The notes: generated from the sequence alone by a model not told the origin. 64,000 nucleotides of DNA from a virus (IMGVR_UViG_3300042691_038938); one strand, 5' to 3'. Numbered from the stretch's first letter, positions 10,928-60,438 are shown. Made by a program: numbers and translations.

Positions 10928-11167
10928 TTATTTACGTTTTCCTCCGCCTACGATGTTCTTGTTCTTAGCCGTAGTCATGTACTGCTTAGTGTACTTATCG
11001 ATGTGTGGAGTTCCTTTACCTTTAACTGGTCCTTCAATCAATCCTTGGTTGATCTTCATAGATCCATTCTTATCGTTTGCAGAAACGTTTGCTTTTCCAC
11101 GGTACCCGCTTTCAGCCTTTTTGAATGCTGCCATAAACTGGTTGTAGTTCATAACTGGATTTGCCAT
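10928..11167 (-). CDS. small basic protein
   Basis: MANPVMNYNQFM leader; late box at 11187-11194. Confidence 0.65.
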   Translation of the reverse strand: MANPVMNYNQFMAAFKKAESGYRGKANVSANDKNGSMKINQGLIEGPVKGKGTPHIDKYTKQYMTTAKNKNIVGGGKRK

Positions 11168-11186
11168 TGTTACTTAATTTTTTTAT

Positions 11187-11194
11187 TATTTATC
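11187..11194 (-). promoter_or_regulatory. late promoter-like GATAAATA
   Basis: GATAAATAATAAAA, 20 nt upstream of ATG 11167. Confidence 0.65.
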
Positions 11195-11255
11195 TTACTT
11201 TAAAAGAAAAAACCGAAAATGTCTTGACATAATCTAATCAGATATTCTAAAAATA

Positions 11256-11284
11256 AAAAACCCCACTTTATCAGCGGGGTTTTT
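11256..11284. terminator. intrinsic terminator hairpin
   Basis: AAAAACCCC...GGGGTTTTT inverted repeat downstream of 11302..11694(-). Confidence 0.7.
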
Positions 11285-11301
11285 ATACTTTATTTAAAAA
11301 T

Positions 11302-11694
11302 TTATCCCTTAGGAAAAAATTGCTTTTTTAATTTAACTGCATACGCAACAGCGTCTGTCGCGGCCTTTTTAACTTCTGCATCTGTTCCATTTGGCCATCC
11401 AAATTCCTTCTTGTTTTTATTGCCATCTGAGTAAACAACATATTTCCAAGGATCAGTTAACTTTGAGTTAAGAAAAAGATTGACTCCTGTATTATGATCA
11501 GGATAACAAAAGTATCCCTTACCATATGATGAAAATCCAGACACATTTGGTTCATCAATGTATTTGAATCCAGCTGCAGCCATTCCTGGTTTTACAATTT
11601 GACCAAAGTGATCAAAATCCTTAACTCGCTCCATTTCAGCTTCTTCAGATTCATGAAGCTTACGCCAATTACTAAAATTTAAAACATTTCCCAT
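11302..11694 (-). CDS. putative internal head protein (capsid-targeting-like leader)
   Basis: MGNVLNFSNWRKLHESE leader; own late box at 11715-11722. Confidence 0.65.
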   Translation of the reverse strand: MGNVLNFSNWRKLHESEEAEMERVKDFDHFGQIVKPGMAAAGFKYIDEPNVSGFSSYGKGYFCYPDHNTGVNLFLNSKLTDPWKYVVYSDGNKNKKEFGWPNGTDAEVKKAATDAVAYAVKLKKQFFPKG

Positions 11695-11714
11695 ATTTTA
11701 AAAATATTTTTTAT

Positions 11715-11722
11715 TATTTATC
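11715..11722 (-). promoter_or_regulatory. late promoter-like GATAAATA
   Basis: Recurrent motif upstream of minus-strand late genes. Confidence 0.65.
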
Positions 11723-11743
11723 TTTTTAAAGGAGAGATTTTTA

Positions 11744-11795
11744 TAGTATAATAGACTTAACTACATAAATTAAACGCCATGAAAAAGTTAGTAAT
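11744..11795 (+). repeat. conserved upstream element copy 1 (TAGTATAATAGACTTAACTACATAAATTAAACGCCATGAAAAAGTTAG)
   Basis: Nearly identical to 13023-13074; contains a TATAAT box, leader and first codons. Confidence 0.85.
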
Positions 11796-12231
11796 TCTTT
11801 TAGTTCTATTGGTTTTAGCCGCTAAAGCCTTCTCTCAAACGATCACAATCGATGTTAAAGAAGCACAGTCTTACATTGATATAGGTCAGACCGACTTCCA
11901 AAGCGTTCTTGATGAACCTGATTGGGAAGACTTTCCTAGAACAACTAACTGTCGATATGTGATCGATTTACAGGACAGCACTTCAACCTTTTACCGAGAT
12001 GGAAAATTCGTAAGTGAGGTAAAGATTGACTATACTGAAGTATCTCCAGGTAAATACGTGATGACTACATACGACACTGCTGTTGAGTCTCACCGCTCAT
12101 CAATATCAGCACAAATGGTATTGGATACTAACGAGAAAACCGAAGAGTTTTTGTACAGCTACTATGACTTTATGGACGATAAGACGTATGTCGACATCCT
12201 AACTAAGTTCACGATAGTTCGACCTGTATAA
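11779..12231 (+). CDS. secreted protein (signal peptide, Gln at +1)
   Basis: MKKLVILLVLLVLAAKAFS|QT; likely beta-rich mature part. Confidence 0.75.
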   Translation: MKKLVILLVLLVLAAKAFSQTITIDVKEAQSYIDIGQTDFQSVLDEPDWEDFPRTTNCRYVIDLQDSTSTFYRDGKFVSEVKIDYTEVSPGKYVMTTYDTAVESHRSSISAQMVLDTNEKTEEFLYSYYDFMDDKTYVDILTKFTIVRPV

Positions 12232-12247
12232 TATCTCTAAAGACAAG

Positions 12248-12273
12248 AAAAGCTCCTCAATTGAGGAGCTTTT
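12248..12273. terminator. bidirectional terminator, perfect palindrome
   Basis: AAAAGCTCCTCAATTGAGGAGCTTTT between convergent genes. Confidence 0.85.
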
Positions 12274-12294
12274 TTAGTTTTATAAGGAAAGTAA

Positions 12295-12975
12295 TTAAGG
12301 CTTTTGAGTAGGAGTTGCCTTAGCTCTTTCCGTAGCAAGAAAATTACTTAGGAGAGAATGATCCTTTGAATACTTAACGTTGCCGTCTCCTCTAGGAACT
12401 CCGAAAGCTGCCGCAGCGTTACCGCCAGCCTCTCCAAGTTCTTTTTGTGAGATGATCGTCGCGATCCCTGCTGCAATCTGAGCCGCGTCACCATCGTTTG
12501 AAGGTTCTGCTCCAGATTGCACATCTAATTCATAATTTTTATCAGGTCCAATAGACATGATTTGTGACCATGAGCCATGACCTTTTAACACAACATCTCC
12601 GGCTAAATACTGAACACCATTCTTATAAACCAACGCTCTTAATACTCCGTTTTCTGCAGAGAATATCGCTTTTATGGTATTCACCTTTTTAGATTTATCA
12701 GCAGGGTCGAGTGAAGTCTTAAAGCTAATCACCTTGTAAGGTTGTCCAGTCTGTAGACCCATTTGTGTTGTGGTACCGGTAGTGGTTCCTACCATAGTCG
12801 TTAGTGTTTCAGCCTTTCCAGAATTTGTTCCAATTCGATTGAACGCTTTTGCGCTTTGTTCAGCTACAAATTGAATCTTATCAAGAGCTGCAAGATCAGC
12901 TGGAGTCGAACCTGTACCGGTCTCATCAGACTCGTATACTCTATACCAATTTCTAAAATTTAAAACGTGTGACAT
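12295..12975 (-). CDS. putative internal head protein (capsid-targeting-like leader)
   Basis: MSHVLNFRNWYRVYESD leader; late box at 12994-13001. Confidence 0.65.
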   Translation of the reverse strand: MSHVLNFRNWYRVYESDETGTGSTPADLAALDKIQFVAEQSAKAFNRIGTNSGKAETLTTMVGTTTGTTTQMGLQTGQPYKVISFKTSLDPADKSKKVNTIKAIFSAENGVLRALVYKNGVQYLAGDVVLKGHGSWSQIMSIGPDKNYELDVQSGAEPSNDGDAAQIAAGIATIISQKELGEAGGNAAAAFGVPRGDGNVKYSKDHSLLSNFLATERAKATPTQKP

Positions 12976-12993
12976 ACTAAAAATCTTTTTTGT

Positions 12994-13001
12994 TATTTAT
13001 C
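12994..13001 (-). promoter_or_regulatory. late promoter-like GATAAATA
   Basis: Recurrent motif. Confidence 0.65.
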
Positions 13002-13022
13002 TTTAAAAGTTAGCAACTTTTT

Positions 13023-13074
13023 TAGTATAATAGACTTAACCACATAAATTAAACACCATGAAAAAGTTAGCAAT
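13023..13074 (+). repeat. conserved upstream element copy 2 (TAGTATAATAGACTTAACCACATAAATTAAACACCATGAAAAAGTTAG)
   Basis: Two mismatches in 48 nt versus copy 1. Confidence 0.85.
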
Positions 13075-13597
13075 CATCTTGATCTTATTAGTAGTAGCAT
13101 TCGAGTCTTTCTCTCAAGTTCAATATGTAGAATCTTCAAAGTTAGATTCCCTAGTTTGGCATCGAATCAACTCTTACCTAGTCTCACTGGGCAAGACTCC
13201 AATCAAACACTTTGAGGACAGTCTCTCTCGAGAATACAGTTATGAAGTCACTAGAGTAAATGCTGACGCTGAGATGATCGCCCACAGCAAGAACGTAGGA
13301 TTGGTGACCACTGCTGAGTGCATCTATCAAGAGACTCACCGAGGCATGAATAGCGAGTTACAAGTGATGATTGATAAAAAAGAATATGATAAGATAGCAA
13401 AGCTTATCGTTGACTCTTGGATCGCTTCTGAGACCCATCGAAACCTGATCTCAATAAACAATTATGCTGCGACTACTGTGACTACTGTCCTGAAATACGA
13501 TAAGACCGGAAAGATCGCATCAGTCACCGCATCATGGCACGCAATCGACGATCCTAAGATCTGGACCACACGCAGCGGATATGTTTTTCGACCATAA
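13058..13597 (+). CDS. secreted CAP/SCP-domain-like protein
   Basis: Signal peptide ...AFESFS|QV; INSYLVSLGKTP, HSK, ECI and SWIASETHRNLI resemble CAP motifs (W..S.gH..N). Confidence 0.6.
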   Translation: MKKLAIILILLVVAFESFSQVQYVESSKLDSLVWHRINSYLVSLGKTPIKHFEDSLSREYSYEVTRVNADAEMIAHSKNVGLVTTAECIYQETHRGMNSELQVMIDKKEYDKIAKLIVDSWIASETHRNLISINNYAATTVTTVLKYDKTGKIASVTASWHAIDDPKIWTTRSGYVFRP

Positions 13598-13599
13598 CA

Positions 13600-13627
13600 A
13601 AAAAGGAGAGCAATTGCTCTCCTTTTT
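13600..13627. terminator. bidirectional terminator, perfect palindrome
   Basis: AAAAAGGAGAGCAATTGCTCTCCTTTTT between convergent genes. Confidence 0.85.
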
Positions 13628-13646
13628 CTATTTTAATAAGTAAGTA

Positions 13647-14978
13647 TTATTTCTTACCTACTGGCCTCTTTGCGCTAAAGTAATAAACTAGACATTCCAT
13701 TGCTTCTTTACCTCCTCTAGTAGAACCTGCAGTAGCAGTACTTCCAACTTTAGTTCCAACCTTTTCGATCTTAGGTTTTTGCTCGTTTGTTGCCAAGTTC
13801 AAGTCAACGAATCGACCGTTATTGTTAGGTCCTCCGGTAGATGCGATCTTCCACGTGATGGTGTAATCTTGGAAACCTGCATGACCTTGACCTGCCAATT
13901 GAGTGTTTAGCTCAGTCATGAAAGAGACTCCTCTGTCGTATGCTAATTTCTTGTTTTTAGCAGAGTCAGTTGTTCCTACTCCAGGATCAGTTGTTCCAGT
14001 AGTTACATCGTAACTCTTTTCCCAACCCGTAACGTTTTTGATCGCGCCGTATTCTGGGCTTGCTGAAGATATCAAATTAAATCCTGTAACAGTCTGGCCT
14101 TTAAACTTCTCAAGAATAGTCTTAGCAAGTTCTGCTACTTGCGTCTTACCTGCAGCAGTTAGGATAGATGATCCTACTTCAAATCCTACGTCTGCTTGAG
14201 TCTTATCTGCACTCACTCCTGCTGTAACTTTAGTCACATCAGTCTCAGTTCTAGTTGTAGTTGATCCTGAAGTGAGCTGAGGAATAAAGAAGATCACAGG
14301 ATCATCGACTCCTCCTGCTCCTGGAGTCAAGCTAATATCGAAAAATCCATCTGTGAAGTTATCTTCCTTCCCATTATACTGACCTGTGCTTGATCCAAAT
14401 GCCTTTGATTTTATGTTATATGAATTCATCGCTCTGATTGCATGTTCATATGACATGAATGCGTCATCGCCAACATTTCTTGCACTAATTACGCTGCCGC
14501 CAAAATACCAATCGCCTTTAGATGCGACATAACCTTCGTCTGGAGTAAATTTTACAGTATATCCAGCATCAGTGAATGATATTGAATTTGGGTCAAGCAT
14601 TTCAAATTCTTTTTCAGTAAACTGACCGGTAGCCGCTGTTAATAGCGTGGTTAGCAGAGTTGCTCCTACTTTTTCTATACTGCCGGCTTCAAGATTACCT
14701 CCATATTCTGTTACTGTTGATCCGCCGAGCAAACCAGAATGGCCTCCATTTTGATTAGAGATGCTCTTTAGTGAATTTGCAATTTTAACAATATTTTGAT
14801 TCTTATCATTAGCTGCAATAAATCCTCTTGCAAAGCCCCCATCAAAGATGATGTCCCTTAGATCAAGTTTATTAGCAATAGTAAGCTCTTGCTTAGGTAG
14901 CATCGGGTCGTTCTTTCCCTCAAAGATGGCAGCTTCATGTACAGCTCTCCACTTCTTGTAATTTAAAATGTATCCCAT
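13647..14978 (-). CDS. putative internal virion protein with C-terminal OmpA-like domain
   Basis: MGYILNYKKWRAVHEAA leader; C-terminal VGFEVGSSILT...NKKLAYDRG...RFVDL resembles OmpA_C. Confidence 0.6.
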   Translation of the reverse strand: MGYILNYKKWRAVHEAAIFEGKNDPMLPKQELTIANKLDLRDIIFDGGFARGFIAANDKNQNIVKIANSLKSISNQNGGHSGLLGGSTVTEYGGNLEAGSIEKVGATLLTTLLTAATGQFTEKEFEMLDPNSISFTDAGYTVKFTPDEGYVASKGDWYFGGSVISARNVGDDAFMSYEHAIRAMNSYNIKSKAFGSSTGQYNGKEDNFTDGFFDISLTPGAGGVDDPVIFFIPQLTSGSTTTRTETDVTKVTAGVSADKTQADVGFEVGSSILTAAGKTQVAELAKTILEKFKGQTVTGFNLISSASPEYGAIKNVTGWEKSYDVTTGTTDPGVGTTDSAKNKKLAYDRGVSFMTELNTQLAGQGHAGFQDYTITWKIASTGGPNNNGRFVDLNLATNEQKPKIEKVGTKVGSTATAGSTRGGKEAMECLVYYFSAKRPVGKK

Positions 14979-14997
14979 TTTTTAGTTAGTTTTTAGT

Positions 14998-15005
14998 TAT
15001 TTATT
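14998..15005 (-). promoter_or_regulatory. late promoter-like AATAAATA
   Basis: Recurrent motif upstream of ATG 14978. Confidence 0.6.
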
Positions 15006-15042
15006 CTTTAAAGCGGTCAAATTTTTTAGTATTTTATCTAAT

Positions 15043-15837
15043 ATGCCAGAATTAGCAGAGATAAAGATAATGGCGGACTACATCAATAAAGTCTGTCAGG
15101 AGAAGGATTTTACGAGCATCTCTTTCTCGGAGAGCGCACAGAGTAGAAAGTTAGGAATCACTCAACCCACTGACCTACAGATATTTAGGATTTCAGCTGA
15201 GTCTAGGGGCAAGGAGCTCATGCTCAGTCTCATTCAAGGAGGCGAAGTCTTTATGAAGATCTCCTTCTCAATGGGAATGTCGGGTCACTGGAGAGAGGTT
15301 CCTCCAGGATTTGAGCCTCCTAAGCACACGCATCTCCTATTTAATTACATAGGATTCGGATCCTTGTGCCTAGTTGACGTACGTCGATTCGCCAGATGGA
15401 AAGTAGTTGAAGACTGGTCCCAAAACCGTGGGCCCTGTCCAGTACACGATTTTACTGAGTTCAAGCACAACATCCTAGGAAACTTAGAGAAGCGAGAGTT
15501 TAATAAACCAATCCATCTTGTGCTCATGAATCAAAAGTATTTTAATGGAATAGGAAACTATCTCCGAGCCGAGATCCTCTTTCACGCCGATCAGGACCCT
15601 TTCATGGACGCTCGTACCGCTCTCTCAACAAATCCCGCAATCATTGAGCTTTGCGAAAGGCTTCCTAAAGAAGCATACGTTCTTGGAGGAGGTCAGCTAA
15701 AGGACTGGGAAAACCCATTTGAGGCCCCAGCTGGAGGATTTAATGAGTGGATGCAATGCTACGGTCGATCCAACCATATTGTGGACAAGAACGGTCGAAC
15801 CTTATGGTATCATGATTCCCAAGTCAAAACCAGTTAG
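15043..15837 (+). CDS. Fpg/Nei-family DNA glycosylase, NEIL1-like
   Basis: N-terminal PE catalytic motif, RGKEL, GMSG, H2TH motif QKYFNGIGNYLRAEIL, no zinc-finger cysteines, C-terminal DKNGRTLWY. Confidence 0.9.
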   Translation: MPELAEIKIMADYINKVCQEKDFTSISFSESAQSRKLGITQPTDLQIFRISAESRGKELMLSLIQGGEVFMKISFSMGMSGHWREVPPGFEPPKHTHLLFNYIGFGSLCLVDVRRFARWKVVEDWSQNRGPCPVHDFTEFKHNILGNLEKREFNKPIHLVLMNQKYFNGIGNYLRAEILFHADQDPFMDARTALSTNPAIIELCERLPKEAYVLGGGQLKDWENPFEAPAGGFNEWMQCYGRSNHIVDKNGRTLWYHDSQVKTS

Positions 15838-16048: not shown

Positions 16049-17643
16049 TGAGTGAAATCACACTGGGCTTTGAGCCTCGCCCACAACAGGTTCAGATCCT
16101 GGACTTTGTGAAAGAATCCATCAAGGATAAGAAAAAATTCATCATGATTGACGCTCCCACTGGAGTAGGCAAGTCATATGCGGCCATCATGATCGCGGAC
16201 TGGTACCGAAAGGAAATCACCAAAAAGGCCAAGGTAGACATAGTCACAAATACTAAGATCTTACAGGATCAGTATATTAAAGACTTTGAGTTTGCTGCAA
16301 ACCTAAAGGGTAAGAACAATTATTGGTGTCGTCGTCAGGGTATGGGCTGCGGAGATGCACAGATCATAAATAAAGCAAACGAGAACAAGTGCGAGCCCTG
16401 TCCACACAGGATGGCCCAGTCCAAGTTTCTACGCAGCCCCTTGAGTCTCACTAACTTTCACCTCATCACTACCTACTCGATGTACTCGCCTGAGATGATG
16501 ATCCAACGCAAGTCTAGGTTACTCATAATCGACGAGGCACACGCCTTTGAGGAGACCTATTGTGACTTCATCTCTTCAGTCTATTCTGAACGTAGCATCA
16601 GGTTACTAGACGTCTGGAGAGACTGGATGGAAAAGGACTTAGATGGAATCACCTCTCTCAACGAGCTTTCAGAGTGGACTAGAACAGTCCTGGTTCCATT
16701 ACTCGCACAGAAGGCTGAAGAGTTACTAAGCGAGGCTAAGGAAACTCGAATAAAGAAGAAAAAGATAGACTTGATCAAGAAAGCCGACCATGTCGACAAG
16801 TCGATGTGTAAGTATAACAGGTTCGTCAATGATAAGGAAAACTACAAGACTAACTGGACTTTTGAAAAGGACTTAGATCAGCATGGCAAGACTAGAATCT
16901 TAGTCGAACCTATCTGGGGAAACATCTACCTAAAGGACATGTTTTGGAACCAGTACGATCATGTGATATTCATGTCAGGTACGCTACTTGATAGGGAACT
17001 TATCTCATTCATCATGGGAGTCAATGAAGAAGAATCATCTTACATGGCTCTTCCATGTCCGTTCAAGGCTGAGAAGAGACCTGTGATCTACTTAAAATTC
17101 GGCAAGATGTCCTATTACCATAAGAAAGAGACCTTTGCTAGAGCAGTGCCGGTGATCTCTAGGATACTTGAGAAAAACCATGAGGTAAAGGGAATCATCC
17201 ACACTGCAAACTACGAGTTTAGTAACTGGATCAAGGCCTCAATCAAGGACAAACGACTCATATTTCACGACTCGGCCACTAGAGAGAAGTCATTAGAGAA
17301 TCACCTTACTTCCAAGTTAGAGACTGTCCTAGTCTCTCCGTCAATGATAAATGGAGTCGACTTGAAGGATGAACTCTCCCGTTTTCAGGTGATCCTAAAG
17401 GTTCCCTTTCCTAACCTAGTGAGCACCAAGATCAAGAAGAGGCTTGAATCCAAGCCAGAATGGTACAATTGGAAGACTCTAGTCGACCTCTTACAGGCAT
17501 ATGGTAGATCAATTAGAAACGACGAGGACTGGGCAGAAACGTTCATCTTAGACGAATGCTTCGATCAGGTGTTAAATAATAAAACGGTGCCCAAATATTT
17601 TTTAGAGGCACTAAAAATTAAAAAGCTAGGAAACAAGGCATGA
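16048..17643 (+). CDS. DinG/Rad3-family SF2 helicase
   Basis: Q motif PRPQQ, DAPTGVGKS, Cys cluster, DEAH, SGT, SPSMINGVDL, QAYGRSIR. Confidence 0.9.
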   Translation: MSEITLGFEPRPQQVQILDFVKESIKDKKKFIMIDAPTGVGKSYAAIMIADWYRKEITKKAKVDIVTNTKILQDQYIKDFEFAANLKGKNNYWCRRQGMGCGDAQIINKANENKCEPCPHRMAQSKFLRSPLSLTNFHLITTYSMYSPEMMIQRKSRLLIIDEAHAFEETYCDFISSVYSERSIRLLDVWRDWMEKDLDGITSLNELSEWTRTVLVPLLAQKAEELLSEAKETRIKKKKIDLIKKADHVDKSMCKYNRFVNDKENYKTNWTFEKDLDQHGKTRILVEPIWGNIYLKDMFWNQYDHVIFMSGTLLDRELISFIMGVNEEESSYMALPCPFKAEKRPVIYLKFGKMSYYHKKETFARAVPVISRILEKNHEVKGIIHTANYEFSNWIKASIKDKRLIFHDSATREKSLENHLTSKLETVLVSPSMINGVDLKDELSRFQVILKVPFPNLVSTKIKKRLESKPEWYNWKTLVDLLQAYGRSIRNDEDWAETFILDECFDQVLNNKTVPKYFLEALKIKKLGNKA

Positions 17644-18815
17644 AATACTTAAGAATAAGTTATCCACAGCTTAGAACAGAGGTCTTGTCTGGGCTTACTA
17701 TCTCAACTGCGCTGGTTCCTGAAGCAATCTCATTTGCTCTACTCATTGGAGTGTCTCCAACTGCTGGTATATGGGCAGCCTTCTTCATGGCATTATCCAC
17801 TTCCCTTTTTGGAGGCAGGCCTGCCATAATAAGCGGTGCGACTGGCGCGACTGCAGTCATACTAGCGGCCCTTGTTTCTCTTCATGGAGAAGATAATCTA
17901 TACCTTGCTGTGATTTTAGCTGGAGTGATCCAGTTAATCTTGTGGATTAGCGGAGGTTGGAAAGTATTCAAGACGGTTCCTAAGATCGTAATTTCCGGAT
18001 TCCTAATTTCACTATCGATACTAATACTTCAAAGTCAATTCAAGTATTTTAAGATAGGTGGACTTTCGAGTATCCAACAGGTAATAATGGTAGGGATAGT
18101 TGTAGTATCAGCCGGCTCAATGTATGTTTCCAGTAAAAGATTCAAATTTCCTCCAGCAATCGCCGCAATATTGATGGGATCAGTTCTTAGTTCTTTCTTT
18201 GCTCTTCCTCTAATACAGGATCTTTCTGCTATATCAAATCGTTTACCTGAATTAGTCACTCCATCAGTTTCATTAGAGTCTTTATTACTAGTCTTGCCGT
18301 ATTCATTAGGTATGGCAATTTCCGGTCTTACTGAATCTCTAATCGCAGTAGATGAAGTCTGTCATAAACTAGGAACCCCAAAGGGAAAAGATCCAAAGTC
18401 TAAAGAAACCTTTGCTCAAGGCATAGGTAATATAGTGAGCGGCTTTTTTACTTCAATTGGAGGCTGTGTCCTCGTAGGTCAGACTAATTTAAACGTCGCA
18501 GCTGGCGCAAAATATCGAGTATCATCCCTAATTGCGAGCCTAGGTCTCTTATTGATCATACTCATTTTTGGAAAGTATATTCAGCTAATTCCTTTAGCTG
18601 GACTCATAGGAGTAATGATAATTGTAGTCTATGAAACTGGCGATTGGTCAAAACTTAAGGATAAAAATAGAGTAAATATAGCAACTCTTATCGTGACGAT
18701 AGCCGCTTCGCTAATCACTCACAATCTTGCGGTAGGAGTCTTGTTTGGAAGTATCACATACTACGCAATAAAAAAGTTAGTAAAGAATAATGGCAAAGAA
18801 AAAGATCGAGGATAA
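17640..18815 (+). CDS. SulP/SLC26-family anion (sulfate) permease lacking a STAS domain
   Basis: LSGLTISTALVPEAISFA, GGRPAIISGATGA, ETFAQGIGNIVSGFF, GGCVLVGQT; many hydrophobic segments. Confidence 0.88.
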   Translation: MKYLRISYPQLRTEVLSGLTISTALVPEAISFALLIGVSPTAGIWAAFFMALSTSLFGGRPAIISGATGATAVILAALVSLHGEDNLYLAVILAGVIQLILWISGGWKVFKTVPKIVISGFLISLSILILQSQFKYFKIGGLSSIQQVIMVGIVVVSAGSMYVSSKRFKFPPAIAAILMGSVLSSFFALPLIQDLSAISNRLPELVTPSVSLESLLLVLPYSLGMAISGLTESLIAVDEVCHKLGTPKGKDPKSKETFAQGIGNIVSGFFTSIGGCVLVGQTNLNVAAGAKYRVSSLIASLGLLLIILIFGKYIQLIPLAGLIGVMIIVVYETGDWSKLKDKNRVNIATLIVTIAASLITHNLAVGVLFGSITYYAIKKLVKNNGKEKDRG

Positions 18816-23341: not shown

Positions 23342-24271
23342 TTATAATATGATTTCTAAGATCTTTTCAGCGACGCTAATAAATTGATCACTAGTTAATA
23401 CTGGTTCTCCAGGCTGAGTCGAAACTAATGCATACACGATTCTGCTTCTATCTGAGATTCCTATTACTGCATGATCATCGTTATCGTTACTATCTCCTCC
23501 ATCGTCGTCTTCAAATTCGTGAGTTATGCCATCCGAACTTCCTGGAATCAAGATCAGGTGATTTATCGTAGGGTCTGTGTCCAATGGATCTTCCAAATTA
23601 GTCTTATAGAAAAGGGTCCAGCCAGGTATGACTTCTTCAATTGATCCGCCATTAACCGTGTCTTCATCTGAACCTACATTACCTGTTATCGAAAATTCTG
23701 ATACTGATGTATTGTCAGCAACCATCACAAAGAGTCCAGGATACATGTTTGTGAAGTACTTTGATCCTGGTCCAAAGTAAGAGTTTCCGTCGCTTACTAT
23801 ACCATCCATTGGAGGACTTGTGTATTCGTTCTCATCATCTTCATTATCAGCCTGAGTGTGAGTGTACGGTATGCTGGTTGCTGCTAATGGATTATCCTCG
23901 TCTATCCCACCTTCTTTAATGATATCATACAGATTAGTCAAGTTAGTGTTCAAGTAGTTTCCACCGTCGTACATATCGTCTCCTCCGTCGTTTATTCCTG
24001 GCAAAGGATCGCCAGTCTCCCCGCTCGTAGTGTAATCGTCCCAAAAAAGATAGATGTTCGGCACAAGAGCAGTGATTTCAGAATACTTAGCATTCAATTT
24101 ACTTAAAGCTAGATCTATCCACTCGCTAGTTTGGATTCTGCTGCCGCCTCCTACTCCTCCTTGAGCTTGAAGTCTCATGCGCATTGCTTGCTCATATAGA
24201 GCCTGTTGTTCAAAGAAAGATCGCAAGTCCTTTTGTTCTCTGCTCTCTTCTCCCCAATTTATAAATGACAT
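23342..24271 (-). CDS. acidic D/G-rich hypothetical protein, probably virion-associated
   Basis: 309-aa ORF downstream of the capsid genes on the same strand. Confidence 0.7.
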   Translation of the reverse strand: MSFINWGEESREQKDLRSFFEQQALYEQAMRMRLQAQGGVGGGSRIQTSEWIDLALSKLNAKYSEITALVPNIYLFWDDYTTSGETGDPLPGINDGGDDMYDGGNYLNTNLTNLYDIIKEGGIDEDNPLAATSIPYTHTQADNEDDENEYTSPPMDGIVSDGNSYFGPGSKYFTNMYPGLFVMVADNTSVSEFSITGNVGSDEDTVNGGSIEEVIPGWTLFYKTNLEDPLDTDPTINHLILIPGSSDGITHEFEDDDGGDSNDNDDHAVIGISDRSRIVYALVSTQPGEPVLTSDQFISVAEKILEIIL

Positions 24272-24726: not shown

Positions 24727-26394
24727 TTAGCTGAATGAAGGAGCAACACCACCAGTAAGAACTGCGATATCACCTTGGATATCCATGTTCACATACTGAG
24801 TTTCAGGATGCCATCCACCCTCTGTGATCGCGTAACGAGATTTCATACCGATCTTAGGAGAGAATGTTCCTTCAGAGATAGTCTGAAGAGATTCAGCCAT
24901 GATGTACGGCATGAATTTAACTCCAGGCTCCTCGTCTGCACCTTTACGTCCGATACAGATTCTTGGATCTCCCCAAGATAAGTTAGGATCAACGTAAACT
25001 TGTACACCGTAAACTTTACCAGCTGGGTAAAGGTTACCTGCAACACCGCCCATATCAGTAGGTACAGTTGCAATAGAGTAACCAGCAACGTCAGCCAAAG
25101 CAGAAGCAAGGCGACCGTTGGTTACCATGAATGTACCAGCACCGAAACGACCTCTGTGGTAGATTAGGTTAGCAAGTTCAAGAACTTTAGTAACCAATCT
25201 TCTTTGCAATGTAGAAACGTTTTCGAATCCACCTGCACCAGCAGCTAGGTCAAGAGTAGTGATTCCAGCACCCTCAACTAGCGCGATCTCACCGTTGTGA
25301 TAATCAGCCAATTGGAATACTCGGTCAACCAATCTCTTATTGATAGATTGAGCAAGCTCGTTAACTGCTACGTTCTCTAACATAGAGATAACGTCGTAGT
25401 TCCAAACTCTGTTCAAGTCTTGGATCTGCTCAACAGTTGCAGAGATTGATACTTGATCAGTCTCAGCTTCAACGAACTTAGTGAACATTCTAAGACCCAT
25501 TTGACGGAACTTAGAGTTCTCACCAGCTTCTCTCTTCATTGATCCAGGAACGTTTCCTGTACCAGGAAGGTAAGAACCATTGAATTGGCTGCTAGTTGAA
25601 GATGTACCAGCATCCCAGTAATCAGCATCAGAAACTGATGTGAAACCAGAAATGTGGTTCTCTAAAGCAGAAACCAACTGAACGTTAGCTGGAACAATTG
25701 CAGCAGAAGTATCACCAGCAATAGTGAAAGTAACACCATTCAACTGAGTTGCAAGAGAATCACTAGTTCCATCGTCTTCAAGGATACGAACAATTGCCGT
25801 TCCGTCTACACGAGAGAATCCAACGAAATCTGCAGATCCACCCCAACCTGCACCACCGGGAGTAACAGCGTCACCCGCAACAGCACTGTTGAAAGTAGAG
25901 TAGTCAAAACCTACAAGTTTAACCAAGTAAGGTTCGAACTCAGAACCAGAAGTACGACCTCCAGCATATAGATAATCCAAGTAAGGAAGGAATCCAACTG
26001 GAGAATCCATAGGGATAACTGGAACTAGGTCGAAACCAATAGTTTTTGCTGCTACTTGAATAGCAACTGGTAAAAGTGATGGAAATTTATCACCAGAACC
26101 GTTAGCGCTAGCTGAGAAAGAATTCTTAGCTCCTGCAGTGAACGGAGTCATTGCTGATGTTGGAGCTGATGGGTTCCCCATGAAACCACCAAGAGATCCT
26201 GGTGTTTGGAAGAACACTCCTGGAGAAGAATTCTCGAATACAGGTGCTGTGTTGTCGAAGATCGCGTGGTTGTGAGCGTACTCAGCTAACCAAGGCGTGT
26301 TCTCAACGTTCGCACCATATCCTTCAAGAATCGGCTTCCAGGTGTTTGTCAAACGAGTGTCGTTTGAACGTCTGAAAATTTTAGTACGTGCCAT
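24727..26394 (-). CDS. major capsid protein (gp23-like)
   Basis: WKPILE, IGFDLVPVIPMDSPVG, AINELAQSIN-like region, GAGTFMVT, KFMPYI, PKIGMKSRYA. Confidence 0.93.
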   Translation of the reverse strand: MARTKIFRRSNDTRLTNTWKPILEGYGANVENTPWLAEYAHNHAIFDNTAPVFENSSPGVFFQTPGSLGGFMGNPSAPTSAMTPFTAGAKNSFSASANGSGDKFPSLLPVAIQVAAKTIGFDLVPVIPMDSPVGFLPYLDYLYAGGRTSGSEFEPYLVKLVGFDYSTFNSAVAGDAVTPGGAGWGGSADFVGFSRVDGTAIVRILEDDGTSDSLATQLNGVTFTIAGDTSAAIVPANVQLVSALENHISGFTSVSDADYWDAGTSSTSSQFNGSYLPGTGNVPGSMKREAGENSKFRQMGLRMFTKFVEAETDQVSISATVEQIQDLNRVWNYDVISMLENVAVNELAQSINKRLVDRVFQLADYHNGEIALVEGAGITTLDLAAGAGGFENVSTLQRRLVTKVLELANLIYHRGRFGAGTFMVTNGRLASALADVAGYSIATVPTDMGGVAGNLYPAGKVYGVQVYVDPNLSWGDPRICIGRKGADEEPGVKFMPYIMAESLQTISEGTFSPKIGMKSRYAITEGGWHPETQYVNMDIQGDIAVLTGGVAPSFS

Positions 26395-26423: not shown

Positions 26424-28394
26424 TTACCCTCGGTAGTTTGCTCCTCTGAGCATGTTCTCTAGGTAATTTTGAGAGTAACCTCTCTGCATCTCAACAACCT
26501 GATTTACAGGTACTAGGCCTTCTGTACTTTGGCTCTCGTTGAGTTGTTGCATTTTATTATTTTGTTTTTGAATTTCAATTCTTTCGTTAACTCCTCTTAG
26601 GTCTACTTCGTCCCAGAAAGCTTTAACTTGATATGGAGTGTTCACTGAATAAAGCTGAGCTTTTGCGTGAATTCTTCCTTGCTCGCTCTCATTCATCTCG
26701 TTCCAGATAGGTTTGTACTCAGCTGGCATGAATCGTAAGTAAGTAGGAATGTTTTGCTCTTTGTGATTGATCACTGCTTCCATGATTCCAGTGATATCAT
26801 TCTCATTGAACCATACTGATCCGTTAAGAGCTTCTACGATAGCTTGTTTAGTTCCTGCTTCAAGACCAAAGAAAGATTTCTTGTTTGCCTCACTCATAAC
26901 CTTTAAGAAAGGATATTTGTTTTCAAGCACTGCTTTAGAAGACTTATCGTTTACTTCAGTGATCACTCGGTCAACTTTAGAGATAAGGTTATCGATTGAG
27001 CTAGACTCATTCAATCCGCTAACTCCTCCAAGAACGTTTCTAGTTCTTAGTTTAGTTCCGTCTGTTAAAGACTCGGCAATGTACTCAGAGTATCCAATAG
27101 ATTGTCCAAGTTTTTCAGATAAGTACTGAGCGTATTCTCTGTTCAAGTTAACGTTCTCAGAAACGTATTCAGTAAATTCAATTCCTCGGTTAGCACCTTC
27201 AGCAACGTATTCTGTGTACTGGATGTTTTTGTCAAGCTCCTCAGCCAAGTAGTTTTGGTACTTGATAGAATTGTTTAAGCTCTCTTTAATGTATTCAGAA
27301 TAGTTGATAGACTGATTCAATTTCTCAGAAACATAATCTTGGTAGTTTACTGAACGGTTCAACATCTCTCCAAGGTAAGAAGAATATTCGATACCATTGT
27401 TCGCTGTCTCAGCAACGTGCTCAGTATAATTAATAGACTGATTTACCTTGTGAGAAAGATAATCAGCGTAATTGATTACTCCCTCAAGAGATTCTGCCAA
27501 GTAATTAACATAGCTTCTCAAATCAGAGTCAGTACTTGGAGAATTTTGTGATGATTCAAGCACGGATCTGTGATTCTTCAATTCTTTCTTAATACCAGTG
27601 AACTGTTTTTGCAGAACTTCGGAATACTTATCCATCTGCTCTTTTGTTACAAACTCTGCCATTGTGTTGTTATTTTTTTGTTCTTGTATAGTTCGCTGGA
27701 AATTGTTTCCTGAACTATTTTCTAGTTTATTTATCTTGTAAACTTTAAAATTGTCTGCAAAGTTTAAACTTTCAGATAAGTCAACTAGTCCAGATTTTTG
27801 TATTAAGGAATTTTCTTTCATTGATGAGTAACTCTCGTTAATCATCGAGAAGTTAGACTTAAGAGATTCGCTCACAGTCTGACGAAGAACAGCCTCAGTA
27901 AAACCAGGCTCTCCGACTAAATCGTAAGTAAATATTCTTTGTAATTTTACTGCTCCGCTCTCGCTTACTTGACCTGCGGCTCTAGAAGAGATCGACAATT
28001 GAACTCCTCCATCGATGAGTGCTTTGGCAAGCTTTCCATGAGGAGTGTTCTCCAAGAGTCTTACTTTAATATGGACCTTGTTTCCTCCGTCATAATTAAG
28101 ACCCTCAATGATGTGTGATGCCTCGCTCAACTTAGCCTCAAAGTGCTGAGGGTGATCGATTGTTCCAACCAACTGTCTTTTTGAGATCTTGTCCTGCAAG
28201 TAAGTAAGATGAGGAAGGTATTCAGTCTTTTCGTATACCCTACGATTGTTATTCATCTGACCAAACACGGCACATACTCCTTCGAGTACTGTTCCTGCCG
28301 ATCCGGTGTTCTGAACTTGGAGTTTTTCTCCAACGTTCTCTACGATTAGCACCCAATCATTACGATCGATTTGTGCTGAGTTAGGATTCATCAA
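26424..28394 (-). CDS. prohead protease (gp21-like) fused to scaffold/core-like repeat domain
   Basis: LEGVCAVFGQMNNNRRVY, GTIDHP, ENTPHGK, SISSRAAG, TYDLVGEPGF, followed by 14-aa Tyr-rich repeats. Confidence 0.88.
   Translation of the reverse strand: MMNPNSAQIDRNDWVLIVENVGEKLQVQNTGSAGTVLEGVCAVFGQMNNNRRVYEKTEYLPHLTYLQDKISKRQLVGTIDHPQHFEAKLSEASHIIEGLNYDGGNKVHIKVRLLENTPHGKLAKALIDGGVQLSISSRAAGQVSESGAVKLQRIFTYDLVGEPGFTEAVLRQTVSESLKSNFSMINESYSSMKENSLIQKSGLVDLSESLNFADNFKVYKINKLENSSGNNFQRTIQEQKNNNTMAEFVTKEQMDKYSEVLQKQFTGIKKELKNHRSVLESSQNSPSTDSDLRSYVNYLAESLEGVINYADYLSHKVNQSINYTEHVAETANNGIEYSSYLGEMLNRSVNYQDYVSEKLNQSINYSEYIKESLNNSIKYQNYLAEELDKNIQYTEYVAEGANRGIEFTEYVSENVNLNREYAQYLSEKLGQSIGYSEYIAESLTDGTKLRTRNVLGGVSGLNESSSIDNLISKVDRVITEVNDKSSKAVLENKYPFLKVMSEANKKSFFGLEAGTKQAIVEALNGSVWFNENDITGIMEAVINHKEQNIPTYLRFMPAEYKPIWNEMNESEQGRIHAKAQLYSVNTPYQVKAFWDEVDLRGVNERIEIQKQNNKMQQLNESQSTEGLVPVNQVVEMQRGYSQNYLENMLRGANYRG
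27066..27512 (-). repeat. ~10.5 tandem 14-aa repeats (Y-x-[ED]-Y-[LVI]-x-E-x-L-N-x-S-I-x)
   Basis: Read directly from the translation, YVNYLAESL through YSEYIAESL. Confidence 0.85.
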
Positions 28395-28438: not shown

Positions 28439-29443
28439 CTAAGTTTTAGACTCGCAGTCTAACATTAGTGCTCTTAATTTATCAGATTTTTCTTTACTTA
28501 AGGAATAAACGTCAGGCACAGAGACATCGAACTTGACTAAATATTCCCCTACCTTTCCCTTATCGTCCTTAATTCCGCTATTGGGTATGGAGAACTTTAA
28601 GTTATTTAGAGTCTTTGGTCCATTTATCGATGCTTCGTATTTCTTATTGAATAGAGTCTCGATCTGTACTTTTTCTTCCCCGAATAGGACCTTACTTAAC
28701 GGCACCTCTATCGTGTGAACTATTTTATTCTCCTCAATTGATATTTTTTCGGGAATCTTGAACTCTATCGTCAGGTACAGATCACCAACTAGAGGTATCT
28801 GTTCCAGTTCTCCCCAAATATTGGTTCTGGTCACAACTTCTTCGTTGCCTAGTCCTGAGACTCTGACTACAGTAAAGGTCTTTCCCTTTTCTTTCTTGAT
28901 CTGAAAGTGGGTCGCTCTAAGGTCTATCGCTATTGTGATCTCCTTTTCCTCGTCCTCAACCAAGTAGTTTATTAGGTTTGATACTTTTCCAGTATAATTT
29001 ATCTTTTTTCTGGTGAACTCAAGCTTTATCTTTGTGCCAATTAGTGCATCTGATAGATCTATTTCATGATTTAACTTGATGTCCAGGTGATTGGTAGTCG
29101 GTGGCGGCGCGTGAGTTCTTCCTTGGGTCTTTTTTTCTCTATTTGATCTCTCTCTCCGCCAATCCTCGTTCTTAAAGTTATTCATGAATTCCTCAAAACC
29201 GAATCCTCCGCCCTGTCCTCCTTGACGAGGCCCTCCTCCAAAGTTTCTAGAGTCGTACTCTTGTCTCTTTTTAGAATCGCTCAGAACCGAGTAGGCCTCT
29301 GCCAACCTTTTAAACTTTTCTTCTGCTTGTGAATCATCCTTATTTTTATCAGGATGATACTGTAGAGCCAGCTTACGATATGCCTTTTTTATCTCGGCTT
29401 CGTTTGCAGTTCTTGCAACCCCTAAAACTGAATAATAGTCCAA
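28439..29443 (-). CDS. DnaJ/CbpA-type co-chaperone (J domain, G/F linker, no zinc finger)
   Basis: [23 protein letters not shown]-rich linker, C-terminal GDLY. Confidence 0.9.
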
Positions 29444-53300: not shown

Positions 53301-53308
53301 TATTTATT
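53301..53308 (-). promoter_or_regulatory. late promoter-like AATAAATA
   Basis: Recurrent motif overlapping the stop of the upstream gene. Confidence 0.6.
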
Positions 53309-53912
53309 AAGAAGAGACAGAGTTATTTATTAGACCATTCAACCTTGCGTTAAATTCAGCAACGCTGTCCTCATTGAAATGATTTACCATTTTGTCAAAC
53401 TCATTGTTCTTTGAAGAATCAGTAATCTGTGGTTTGAATTCTGAAAATATCCTTTCAAAGAGTTCCTTTTCGCTCTCTGCATTCTCAAAGTTTCCAAAGT
53501 AGTCTTTCTCTCTTCTAGTGATCTCAATCTCTTCAGCTCTCTCAACATATAGGACTTTGCTGTTCTGATAAAGGTCACTCATTAGGATCTTCTTAAACTC
53601 TTCCAATAACCGAATCGCGCCCATTCTCTCTCGATAGATCGACCACACATAGGCTGAGAAGATGCAACGATCAAAGACTAGGATGTGATCCTTTAAGAGA
53701 GTCTGATTGAGCTCAAGTATCGTAAGCACGTTCGCAATGCTAAAGTAATGAACTCCTGGCCCAGTCTCCTGATCCTTCATCTTCAAGGCTTCAATATATT
53801 TTGCGAATTGAAACTTGTAGTAATGAACCCTAGGATCAGTGTTCTGTTCAAGAAACTTTTCGATTAGAAAAGTCTTTCCGCTATGTCTATGGCCTTCTAT
53901 TATTAGTATCAT
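53307..53912 (-). CDS. P-loop nucleotide monophosphate kinase (thymidylate/dNMP kinase-like)
   Basis: IIEGHRHSGKT Walker A, VFDRCIFSAYVW (DR motif). Confidence 0.75.
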   Translation of the reverse strand: MILIIEGHRHSGKTFLIEKFLEQNTDPRVHYYKFQFAKYIEALKMKDQETGPGVHYFSIANVLTILELNQTLLKDHILVFDRCIFSAYVWSIYRERMGAIRLLEEFKKILMSDLYQNSKVLYVERAEEIEITRREKDYFGNFENAESEKELFERIFSEFKPQITDSSKNNEFDKMVNHFNEDSVAEFNARLNGLINNSVSS

Positions 53913-54523: not shown

Positions 54524-54545
54524 ATAAAAAGTTTTGATCTCTAAG

Positions 54546-55037
54546 ATGGGAAAATACATCAAGCTATTTGAGGACTATGAAAACGAACTAAAGAATTCGG
54601 ACGAAGAGACCTCTCACAACTGGACCGACATTCGTGATGCCGTCCAGATGAGACTGCCCTTCGTGATAATAGTCTTCAAGAACTCTGATTCATACCTATC
54701 TGCGTTGGACTCTGAACTGATCGGTGGAGACTACATCAAGCAAAAAGCCCTAATGAGTAAGGACGGAACGCTTGTTAAGTACCCTTCGATCTTCATGGTT
54801 GTCCAGGACGACGAGACCTTTAAGAATAAGATACCAAAGATATTCGATGCATTTAAGACTAAGGTGATCTTTTTGGGTAAAAAGGGAGACGACCAGATTG
54901 ACTGTTATTACTCAGATGGATCTAACGTACAAGCAGGTAATGAGATAGTGTCCTCCTTAGGAAAGGATGAGATGGACAACAACGACCACTTTGAGATAGG
55001 ATCAACTAATTACATGTTTGTTGACTTCGTCGGATAA
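54546..55037 (+). CDS. hypothetical protein with capsid-targeting-like leader
   Basis: MGKYIKLFEDYENE. Confidence 0.65.
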   Translation: MGKYIKLFEDYENELKNSDEETSHNWTDIRDAVQMRLPFVIIVFKNSDSYLSALDSELIGGDYIKQKALMSKDGTLVKYPSIFMVVQDDETFKNKIPKIFDAFKTKVIFLGKKGDDQIDCYYSDGSNVQAGNEIVSSLGKDEMDNNDHFEIGSTNYMFVDFVG

Positions 55038-59004: not shown

Positions 59005-60438
59005 ATGGAGGACAAATCAAAGAAAATAAAAAAGCTGGATCTAAAGCAGAATGCGATCAAGATCCTAATTAACTCGATATACGGAGCATTCGGTAACAAG
59101 TGGTTCTATTTTTACAATCCGGATATCGCTCAATCGATCACCCTTCAGGGTCAAGACCTAATAAAGTTCTCCATCAAGGCTGTGAATCACTATTTTCAAG
59201 AGAGATGGCACCTCGATAAGGAGCTGCACAGTCTACTTGGACTTGATGGATATACTATAAACAAGATAGATGATGTCGCAGCGATCTATACTGACACTGA
59301 CTCGATCTATGTACAGTTTGACTCTGCGATAGATTCGATAATCGGTGCAAACTTCACAAAGGAAGAGATCCTTAACATCTGTATCAATATCGACAAACAT
59401 CGACTCTCTAGTTATTTCGACCAGTGTTTCGAAAGATACGGAAAGATATTCAATACGAAGAACCGACTTAAATTCAAATTGGAAAACCTTTCTGAACACG
59501 GAATCTGGTTAAAGAAGAAGAACTATGCTATTCGAGTGGCATATGAACCCAATCCTAGCTATGAGACTATTCCTCAAGAGAAGAGATACCTTGTGATCAA
59601 GGGTCTCGAATCCATCAAGGGATCGTATCCAATCTGGGCCAGAAAAAAGCTTGAATCGCTTTACTCATTTATTCTAAATCGAGGTAAACGTCTCGACATT
59701 GAGAAGGACATCATTCCGACTCTTCTTGAGATCAAGAAAGAGTTCATGAGCCTGCATCCAGACGAGCTTGCATTCAACTATAAGATTAGGGTCTATAATA
59801 AATACGTAGCGAGTGAGGCTAAGCTCGACTTAAAGAAGGGCATATCAATATTCCCAAGAGCAGCTGCCATCTACAATCACACTCTAATCAAGACCAGTCT
59901 GACTGATCGCTATCCAAAGTTGAGAGAAGGTGACAAGATCAAGTTTTATTACTGTAATCCTGAAGAGAATGACGGTGGATTTGACGTGTTCGCCTATTCT
60001 CCAGGTTCTTATCCTGATGAAATCGTTCCCAAGATGGACATGAATCTGCAGTTCTTCTCACTAATCGTCGAACCCATCAATAGGTTTCTTTTTGCGATGA
60101 ACCTAGGTCAACTCGATCAAAACTTAAAAAGAGCAATTGAAGTGGTCACGATCAAGAGCAAGAAAGTTCTATCTCAAAACCTAACTCATCCTCTCTTTGT
60201 AGTAGATCAAGCTAGTCTACAATACGAGCCTGTGCCCGAGAAGTTTTGGACAACTATTGGTAATCCAGAGAAGGAGGTCGAGACGCAAGACTTTCAAGAA
60301 TATCTTAGCGTCATTACTCGATATGGTCTAAACTCAGTAATAGTCCCAGAGCCAGAGCTTGAAAAGTACATCAAGCGTCTCTCTAAAAAGAAGGAAAAGG
60401 TAGAGTCTGAACTTGAGGTAGAGGAAGAAAATGTTTGA
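59005..60438 (+). CDS. family B DNA polymerase, C-terminal half (split gp43)
   Basis: Starts at motif B (KQNAIKILINSIYGAFGN), SITLQGQ, motif C YTDTDS, KKNYA, IKGLE; no exonuclease domain or motif A. Confidence 0.9.
   Translation: MEDKSKKIKKLDLKQNAIKILINSIYGAFGNKWFYFYNPDIAQSITLQGQDLIKFSIKAVNHYFQERWHLDKELHSLLGLDGYTINKIDDVAAIYTDTDSIYVQFDSAIDSIIGANFTKEEILNICINIDKHRLSSYFDQCFERYGKIFNTKNRLKFKLENLSEHGIWLKKKNYAIRVAYEPNPSYETIPQEKRYLVIKGLESIKGSYPIWARKKLESLYSFILNRGKRLDIEKDIIPTLLEIKKEFMSLHPDELAFNYKIRVYNKYVASEAKLDLKKGISIFPRAAAIYNHTLIKTSLTDRYPKLREGDKIKFYYCNPEENDGGFDVFAYSPGSYPDEIVPKMDMNLQFFSLIVEPINRFLFAMNLGQLDQNLKRAIEVVTIKSKKVLSQNLTHPLFVVDQASLQYEPVPEKFWTTIGNPEKEVETQDFQEYLSVITRYGLNSVIVPEPELEKYIKRLSKKKEKVESELEVEEENV

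Follow-up and report, generated by a model that had tools for sequence, protein, structure and literature searches.

Gene-pair cassettes exchanged at bidirectional promoter joints in uncultured T4-like jumbo phages

Introduction

How do proteins that are unrelated to one another come to be encoded side by side behind nearly identical regulatory sequences in one phage genome? This question is raised by a locus in IMGVR_UViG_3300042691_038938, a 64-kb sequence (hereafter the window, meaning the whole stretch of DNA that was analysed) from an uncultured freshwater phage of the T4-like jumbo type, in which five genes alternate between the two strands. Three of them, located on the minus strand, follow late-type promoter boxes (L genes), and two, located on the plus strand, encode secreted-type proteins (S genes). 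The order late(-)/secreted(+)/late(-)/secreted(+)/late(-) given in an initial annotation of this DNA was borne out by the coordinates and strands of all five genes. That annotation had further proposed a plug-and-play hotspot, in which conserved regulatory joints act as recombination anchors for the swapping of cargo genes. Comparison with related phages, described below, leads to the same answer, namely that gene-pair cassettes are turned over by recombination at the joints. The whole explanation, comprising a hyperplastic insertion site, joint-anchored cassettes, an L leader that would act as a tag similar to the capsid-targeting sequence (CTS) of T4 internal proteins, and S products that would be early or middle envelope proteins, is considered likely.

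Architecture of the cassette array

The array is bounded by two fixed flanks. On the left-hand side lies the gene of an Fpg/Nei-type DNA glycosylase (fpg; 15043-15837, plus strand; Pfam PF01149, 1.8e-12), and on the right-hand side a conserved small basic late gene encoding 79 amino acids (w10928; 10928-11167, minus strand), which is preceded by a late-type GATAAATA box at 11187-11194. Between these flanks, L3 (443 amino acids; 13647-14978, minus strand) converges on S2 (179 amino acids; 13058-13597, plus strand) and L2 (226 amino acids; 12295-12975, minus strand) on S1 (150 amino acids; 11779-12231, plus strand), and L1 (130 amino acids; 11302-11694, minus strand) has no S partner here. S1 starts with MKKLVILLVLLVLAAKAFSQ (signal peptide codons 11779-11838) and S2 with MKKLAIILILLVVAFESFSQ; both starts end in FSQ and represent typical Sec leaders, as called by eye and with a simple heuristic rather than with SignalP. 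The palindromic terminators reported previously for each convergent junction were recovered, being a bidirectional terminator between S1 and L2 (12246-12275), whose palindrome was scored on either strand, and a terminator-like palindrome between S2 and L3 (13600-13627, plus strand). A third palindrome, a terminator-like hairpin featuring a stem of 12 pairs with a T run behind it, lies 3' of L1 (11256-11284, minus strand).

The divergent gaps represent the joints. In joint 1 (11695-11778), a minus-strand GATAAATA box (11715-11722) is placed back to back with a plus-strand TAGTATAAT element (11744-11752), and joint 2 (12976-13057) contains the same two elements at 12994-13001 and 13023-13031, respectively. 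Such back-to-back boxes had been claimed for every divergent gap. The exact combination holds for these two of the three gaps only; the gap between L3 and fpg (joint 3, 14979-15042) has AATAAATA (14998-15005, minus strand) and TAGTATTTT (15027-15035, plus strand) instead. The 48-nt block described for joints 1 and 2 (11744-11791 and 13023-13070, with a spacing of 1279 nt) was found as stated, with two mismatches and a continuation into ATGAAAAAGTTAG. Its 32-nt core occurs only twice in the window, compared to zero copies expected from shuffles, and weaker homology around the block reaches 140 nt at 77%. A joint is approximately 83 nt long, is conserved between cassettes and between genomes, and follows the plan CAT-GGCGTTTAATTTATnTGGTTAAGTCTATwATACTAwAAAA, about 12 variable bases, TTTAAAGATAAATAATAAAAAA, 10-14 bases and ATG, the homology running on into signal-peptide codons on one side and into leader codons on the other. 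No hairpin was found in the joints; the hairpin terminators are located at the opposite, convergent gene ends.

Both promoter-like elements were also detected outside the array. The minus-strand box is one instance of a motif, (G/A/T)ATAAATAAtAAAAA, that recurs throughout the window; many start codons, among them those of tail tube, head closure and baseplate-region genes, are preceded by it at a distance of 8-27 nt. GATAAATA was therefore rejected as a cassette-specific element. The box resembles the T4 late promoter, which is TATAAATA. The plus-strand motif TAGTAT(A/T)(A/T)T is less frequent. Apart from the three joints of the array, the third of which precedes fpg, it was found in front of the DNA polymerase gene at 59005, and it looks like a promoter class of replication genes. 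In joints 1 and 2, the arrangement TTTAAA-N16-18-TATAAT scores 10/12, on a consensus that may not fit the polymerase of the host, which probably belongs to the Bacteroidota.

Cassette turnover in related phages

To compare the locus across relatives, about 100 related IMG/VR loci were gathered by searches with the tail-tube protein and with the small late gene, w10928, homologues of which were present in 80 IMG/VR loci with 48-93% identity. In most of the loci the interval between fpg and w10928 measures only 84-106 bp and is thus empty. The remaining loci hold one, two, three or five alternating L/S pairs, with five being found in the closest relative (L001). The Fpg/Nei gene borders the site in most related loci, and a topoisomerase gene takes this position in some clades. 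Clustering of the cargo by blastp after trimming of the leaders resulted in 39 families among 30 distinct occupied loci. Shared pairs occur in differing order between genomes. Read from fpg, the window has L3/S2, L2/S1 and L1, and locus L035 has L126/rhomboid, L228/S150 and L521/S183. On a tree of the flank proteins, occupancy of the site requires at least four changes, and its content varies even among near-identical genomes.

Across these loci, the cargo varies between zero and five pairs while the joints persist, and additional joint copies were detected, arranged in tandem here and also present at a second locus of a related genome; fixed gene content without further copies, the outcome named initially as refuting the hotspot, did not occur. 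The finest resolution was provided by loci L034 and L035, which possess identical flanks and differ by exactly one convergent L228/S150 pair; a difference of one pair also distinguishes L003 from L049 and L050. The single joint of L034 overlaps by 92 nt with both of the L035 joints flanking the extra pair, with a match of 90% to the right-hand joint and of 73% to the left-hand one, which indicates a crossover inside the joint. The one-pair indel thus breaks within the joints, as expected for the recombination anchors of the hotspot proposed initially.

Comparison of the window with L001 revealed that joints located between unrelated cargo genes match at 74-89% over 94-182 nt, with joint 1 sharing 86% identity over 182 nt with an L001 joint that separates unrelated cargo. 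In the same comparison, L2 and L205 are exchanged, with S1 and the terminator being retained; the S1/L2 terminator and the equivalent L001 hairpin are 93.5% identical over 31 nt. This exchange appears to have used the terminator. Indels and replacements between relatives were accordingly found with their breakpoints at the joint, the mobile unit being the convergent L/S pair between two joints. In these comparative data, cassettes are turned over by recombination at the joints.

A second hotspot (loci L106 and L108) was observed in G006, the 176-kb contig of locus L037, in which two L/S pairs occupy positions 16122-18297 just downstream of a homologue of the window gene at 23342-24271 (MSFINWG...). 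The equivalent position in the window has no L/S pair. Leader-tagged genes without S partners are present at further loci of G006.

A shared leader on the L proteins

The three minus-strand proteins of the window share a 15-residue N-terminal leader that had been missed in the initial annotation, represented by MGNVLNFSNWRKLHE in L1 (codons 11650-11694), MSHVLNFRNWYRVYE in L2 (codons 12931-12975) and MGYILNYKKWRAVHE in L3 (codons 14934-14978). A relaxed regular expression for this leader matched only these three genes in the window. In 30 out of 30 L genes, distributed over approximately 16 blastp families, the leader follows the pattern Mxx(I/L/V)L(N/D)(F/Y)xxWxx(L/V/I)xE, with L, W and E being invariant, L, V or I occupying position -3 in every case, and the next residue being mostly S, A or Q. 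Its codons vary synonymously (Leu TTA/CTT/CTA/TTG, Glu GAA/GAG, Tyr TAT/TAC), indicating that the peptide itself is under selection and not the DNA alone. In other lineages, homologues of the L1 cargo carry leaders such as MEHIKIYEEFLGELNE or MKNLFSYEEMGSSLNE, and L3 homologues carry MKNxKILPFGDWFKVYE or MNLERLLAENMIRFGTKNLNE; most of these alternative leaders likewise end in hydrophobic-x-Glu (Phi-x-E).

All 30 leaders end in L/V/I-x-E, which corresponds to the pattern that the prohead protease of T4 recognises. For T4 internal proteins, the ten N-terminal CTS residues have been described to suffice for capsid targeting, with residues 8 and 10 governing the processing by gp21 (PMC9026906), and the internal proteins of T-even phages are a diverse set having only the tag in common (PMC3012670). 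Among the genes of the window are those of a major capsid protein of the gp23 type (24727-26394, minus strand; Pfam PF07068, 1.7e-33) and of a 656-amino-acid protein in which a Peptidase_S77 prohead protease is fused to a probable scaffold region (26424-28394, minus strand; Pfam PF03420, 36.5 bits; phrog_207), PF03420 also being present in four of the five relatives checked. Taken together, the Phi-x-E ending, the gp23-type capsid and the S77 protease suggest that the leader is probably a lineage-specific capsid-targeting propeptide, analogous to that of the T4 internal proteins. The alternative leaders of the L1 and L3 cargo families lend this reading independent support. The S77 protease is the presumed processing enzyme for the L leaders.

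Residues 305-444 of the protease protein are composed of ten 14-residue repeats of perfect period (xSINYxEY-Phi-xExLN), which are kept in relatives and each of which contains one Phi-x-E site. This region looks like a built-in, self-cleavable scaffold, as deduced from the repeat pattern. A full DnaJ homologue, comprising a J domain and a C-terminal domain, is encoded immediately upstream of the protease-scaffold gene (28439-29443, minus strand). The idea that the leader mimics the 14-residue repeats was based on resemblance by eye only; it failed in scoring with a position-specific scoring matrix (PSSM) of the repeats and was dropped as evidence. An hmmsearch with a 14-column model of the scaffold repeat returned nothing usable.

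The product of the right-hand flanking gene, w10928, begins with MANPVMNYNQFMAAFKKAE; in the stretch VMNYNQF it is similar to the initial half of the L leader, with which it shares Phi-Phi-N-Y-x-x-aromatic. Judging from this resemblance, w10928 may be a resident, ancestral member of the leader-tagged class.

Predicted folds of the cargo proteins

None of the five cassette proteins gave a significant Pfam or PHROG match, and single-sequence PDB searches with L3 and S2 resulted in noise only. In its predicted model, L3 contains an OmpA-like peptidoglycan-binding fold (beta-alpha-beta-alpha-beta-beta) at residues ~250-400 (nucleotides ~13779-14231), a stretch modelled with predicted local distance difference test (pLDDT) values of 66-83. 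The structural comparison by VIA-align yielded a Z score of 10.1 and a root-mean-square deviation of 2.9 over 107 of 109 residues, and ranks 1-33 were all OmpA_C, Pal, MotB or TagL domains. The profile of the L3 family matches the C-terminal domain of OprF (E 0.0044) at the N..L..R motif, and N, L, D and R of N..L..DR are conserved. A relative, L589, reached 14.9 bits for PF00691, below the threshold of 27.2, L3 itself being without a Pfam match. L3 has no signal peptide, as would suit a peptidoglycan binder that is delivered from the virion.

The AlphaFold2 model of S2 (pLDDT 82.5) was matched by Foldseek to the CAP structures BB0689 (4d53, E 3.7e-4), GAPR-1 and SAV1118, with a probability of 1.0 and a template modelling score of ~0.5. 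S2 has no Pfam match itself, and its alignable sister family f5 (L013:273-872) reached 39.6 bits for PF00188 (threshold 21.1); conserved His, Ser and His columns are visible in an alignment. As modelled, S2 is a secreted protein of the CAP/SCP/PR-1 alpha-beta-alpha sandwich fold. In locus L030 (1253-1733), an S2-type CAP gene was observed to be split into open reading frames of 54 and 124 amino acids, as might result from a frameshift, from decay or from an error in sequencing.

For S1, the nearest ESM Atlas clusters were phage proteins and 'secreted protein' clusters of the Bacteroidota, and on this basis a Bacteroidota host is plausible. ESM Atlas provided no usable match for L2, for which six homologues were found, all within this phage group and all without a Pfam domain. 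A protein of the L1 family had no tblastn match among cultured phages. L1, L2 and S1 were thus assigned to no recognisable family in Pfam and PHROG or, for S1 and L2, in ESM Atlas. In three related phages, the S position is occupied by a gene for an intramembrane protease of the rhomboid family (PF01694, 2e-18; L023:9190-9963, L034:6960-7691 and L035:4424-5197), which lies opposite a leader-tagged gene of 126-137 amino acids (L132 family).

Proposed mechanism

Tandem cassettes occupy the site between fpg and the conserved small late gene. In each of them, an L gene with an upstream late-type ATAAATA box converges on an S gene with an upstream TAGTAT(A/T)(A/T)T element, a shared hairpin terminator lying between the two; the S product is a membrane protein or starts with a Sec-type signal peptide. 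Adjacent cassettes meet at a joint that contains both promoter elements and, together with the coding starts on its two sides, offers 90-180 nt of homology between cassettes that are unrelated in other respects. As the comparative data show, homologous recombination between joints, sometimes at terminators, inserts, deletes, reorders and re-pairs the cassettes. According to the mechanism proposed here, the leader would most likely direct the diverse L cargo to the core of the prohead, the S77 protease would then cleave it off, and the cargo would exit the virion at infection; the putative OmpA-like peptidoglycan binder L3 would have no other route to the periplasm. The S genes, with a promoter of the type found at replication genes, would supply envelope proteins early or in the middle of infection.

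Several observations weigh against parts of this explanation. The ATAAATA box is also located upstream of the non-structural thymidylate-kinase-like and PhoH genes, so that the genes following it are perhaps not strictly late; late, packaged and ejected are all states that we infer for the L genes and their products. Some L genes have no S partner (L1 in the window, and L053-L055), and some sites carry single non-L genes. Beyond the Phi-x-E ending, the leader shows no sequence similarity to the T4 CTS, MKTYQEFIAE. With the scaffold-repeat PSSM, built of two blocks with 0-3 gap positions, the leaders had a median of -2.3 compared to -4.5 for the controls, 30% of which reach the leader median. 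Moreover, the model of L3 is poor outside residues 250-400 (mean pLDDT 47), and the canonical GHTD of OmpA is replaced by SSASPE.

Alternative explanations

Whether L and S genes belong together in function as well as in position can be judged from their pairing. A purely architectural pairing, with L and S being independent in function and travelling together through linkage only, comes close to an even chance without quite reaching it. Given a two-way joint, any segment lying between direct joint copies necessarily has an L gene at its start and a convergent S gene at its end. Partners are also changed: S family f0 pairs with L family f1 or f2, f3 with f4 or f16, and f13 with f25 or f28; the window and L001 differ by an L replacement that left S and the terminator in place; and unpaired L genes exist, as do the leader-tagged genes found elsewhere in G006. 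However, the pair composed of the L3 family and the CAP family (f1-f0) was kept at nine out of nine loci, although the proteins diverge by 25-50%. Constant partners were also seen for f6 with the rhomboid and for f11 with f12, and the second locus again carries L/S pairs. These pairs could be read as effector/immunity-like or superinfection-exclusion pairs, in which an early exported S protein would neutralise the virion-delivered L protein of later sibling phages, and diversification would reflect competition between phages. This reading is possible and clearly tentative. The co-inheritance of cognate families points to it, as do the periplasm-acting fold predicted for L3 without a signal peptide, the envelope targeting of the S proteins (CAP domain, lipoprotein-like or rhomboid) and an S promoter class that differs from that of L and is common to replication genes; a precedent is given by T4 Spackle, which neutralises the gp5 lysozyme (PMC7677548). 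Linkage alone accounts for the co-inheritance, however, some pairings are shuffled, and no inhibitor-target precedent was found for a CAP/OmpA-like combination. The geometric explanation is placed somewhat above the functional one. A modular system of exclusion and counter-exclusion between phages, in which a capsid-delivered L protein and its own exported neutraliser would be shuffled among competing phages via promoter-leader joints, would be comparable to the effector-immunity islands of type VI secretion systems and appears rather unlikely.

For the leader itself, conservation merely at the DNA level, as a recombination anchor or translation-initiation region instead of a targeting peptide, would agree with its codons being contiguous with the conserved joint and adding to the homology. 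We regard this as improbable, given that the peptide is kept through synonymous changes, that tagged genes occur without a joint (for example at 11511 in G006, directly behind another gene), and that the same cargo has different leaders with the same Phi-x-E ending in other lineages. The regular units of similar spacing, and the fact that two S genes in L001 belong to the same family, f10, may also bring to mind an origin in which a single ancestral pair was duplicated in tandem and the copies diverged where they lay, without cassette exchange. Such an origin is very doubtful, because the cargo families are unrelated in sequence and fold (OmpA-like, CAP, rhomboid and others), shared pairs are permuted in their order, and near-identical genomes differ by whole pairs. 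Joint-anchored cassettes with a putative CTS-like leader remain the preferred explanation.

Comparison with known systems

Two systems of T4-type phages resemble the one described here. PeSL (promoter-early stem-loop) cassettes (Arbiol et al. 2010, PMC2839356; Comeau et al. 2014, PMC4122927) are likewise short repeated regulatory sequences in hyperplastic regions, which flank ORFans and represent crossover points for indels and replacements. The T4 internal proteins IPI, IPII and IPIII (PMC3012670, PMC9026906) are, like the L proteins, unrelated to one another and equipped with a common short leader ending in hydrophobic-x-Glu; a gp21-type (S77) protease, a gp23-type capsid and a gene set that is highly variable between relatives are further features in common with the T-even phages. 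By analogy, the present system can be described as PeSL-like modular shuffling combined with the CTS principle of the T4 internal proteins.

It differs from both in having a bidirectional anchor that leads into two sorting leaders, a separate terminator and a gene pair as its unit, and in belonging to a distant lineage. Compared to PeSL, late-type and TATAAT-type promoters stand back to back in the anchor, which is extended by the two coding leaders, and the terminator is located at the convergent end, whereas it is part of the motif in PeSL; the mobile unit is a convergent pair of two genes and not a single early ORFan. Compared to the T4 CTS, the leader, a putative targeting tag, is 15 residues long instead of 10 and is not similar in sequence. 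The T4 internal proteins are small, basic and DNA-associated, whereas the cargo here includes a predicted peptidoglycan-binding fold, and each tagged gene of a cassette is coupled to a gene for a secreted protein.

In logic only, the L/S pairs are comparable to T4 Spackle (sp) and gp5 (PMC7677548), an early periplasmic protein directed against a virion-delivered, envelope-acting protein. The T4 genes, however, are neither adjacent nor cassette-borne nor diversified, and there is no homology. Effector-immunity pairs of type VI secretion systems (T6SS) and contact-dependent inhibition (CDI) systems are also adjacent, co-inherited and diversified, feature a conserved N-terminal delivery tag with variable cargo and, for effectors active in the periplasm, have a protective partner equipped with a signal peptide. 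This likeness is an analogy without homology, the cassettes being known here from sequence comparison.

The locus provides natural before-and-after examples of accessory-gene swapping in a large uncultured phage lineage. Since the anchor joins two promoters and two putative protein-sorting leaders, incoming cargo would be timed and addressed at once. If the leader is indeed a capsid tag, the catalogue of L proteins would list proteins possibly injected into Bacteroidota-like hosts, and the leader could be used as a tool to load proteins into such capsids. Furthermore, the regular coupling with secreted proteins raises the idea of superinfection exclusion for environmental phages.

Phage lineage and further genes of the window

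The phage belongs to a deep-branching lineage within the T4-like jumbo phages, far from the T-evens. Its capsid protein shares no more than 36% identity with that of any deposited phage, the nearest ones being uncultured huge phages and the Prevotella Lak phages, and a nucleotide search with the window found no relative among cultured phages. A genome size of roughly 250 kb is implied by the CheckV estimates for related contigs. In addition to the capsid protein and the protease, the window encodes a T4-type tail tube, a portal, a head-closure protein and topoisomerase II.

Two further genes located behind ATAAATA boxes (53307-53912, minus strand, and 54534-55037, plus strand) have leader-like starts, MAKYMRSYFQYVNE/AEE and MGKYIKLFEDYE, respectively. 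Among the controls scored with the scaffold-repeat PSSM, the product of the former ranked first; its homologue in G006 begins with MASKYIPSYLQYIKE/AEE. As deduced from these starts, the two genes may represent a second propeptide class.

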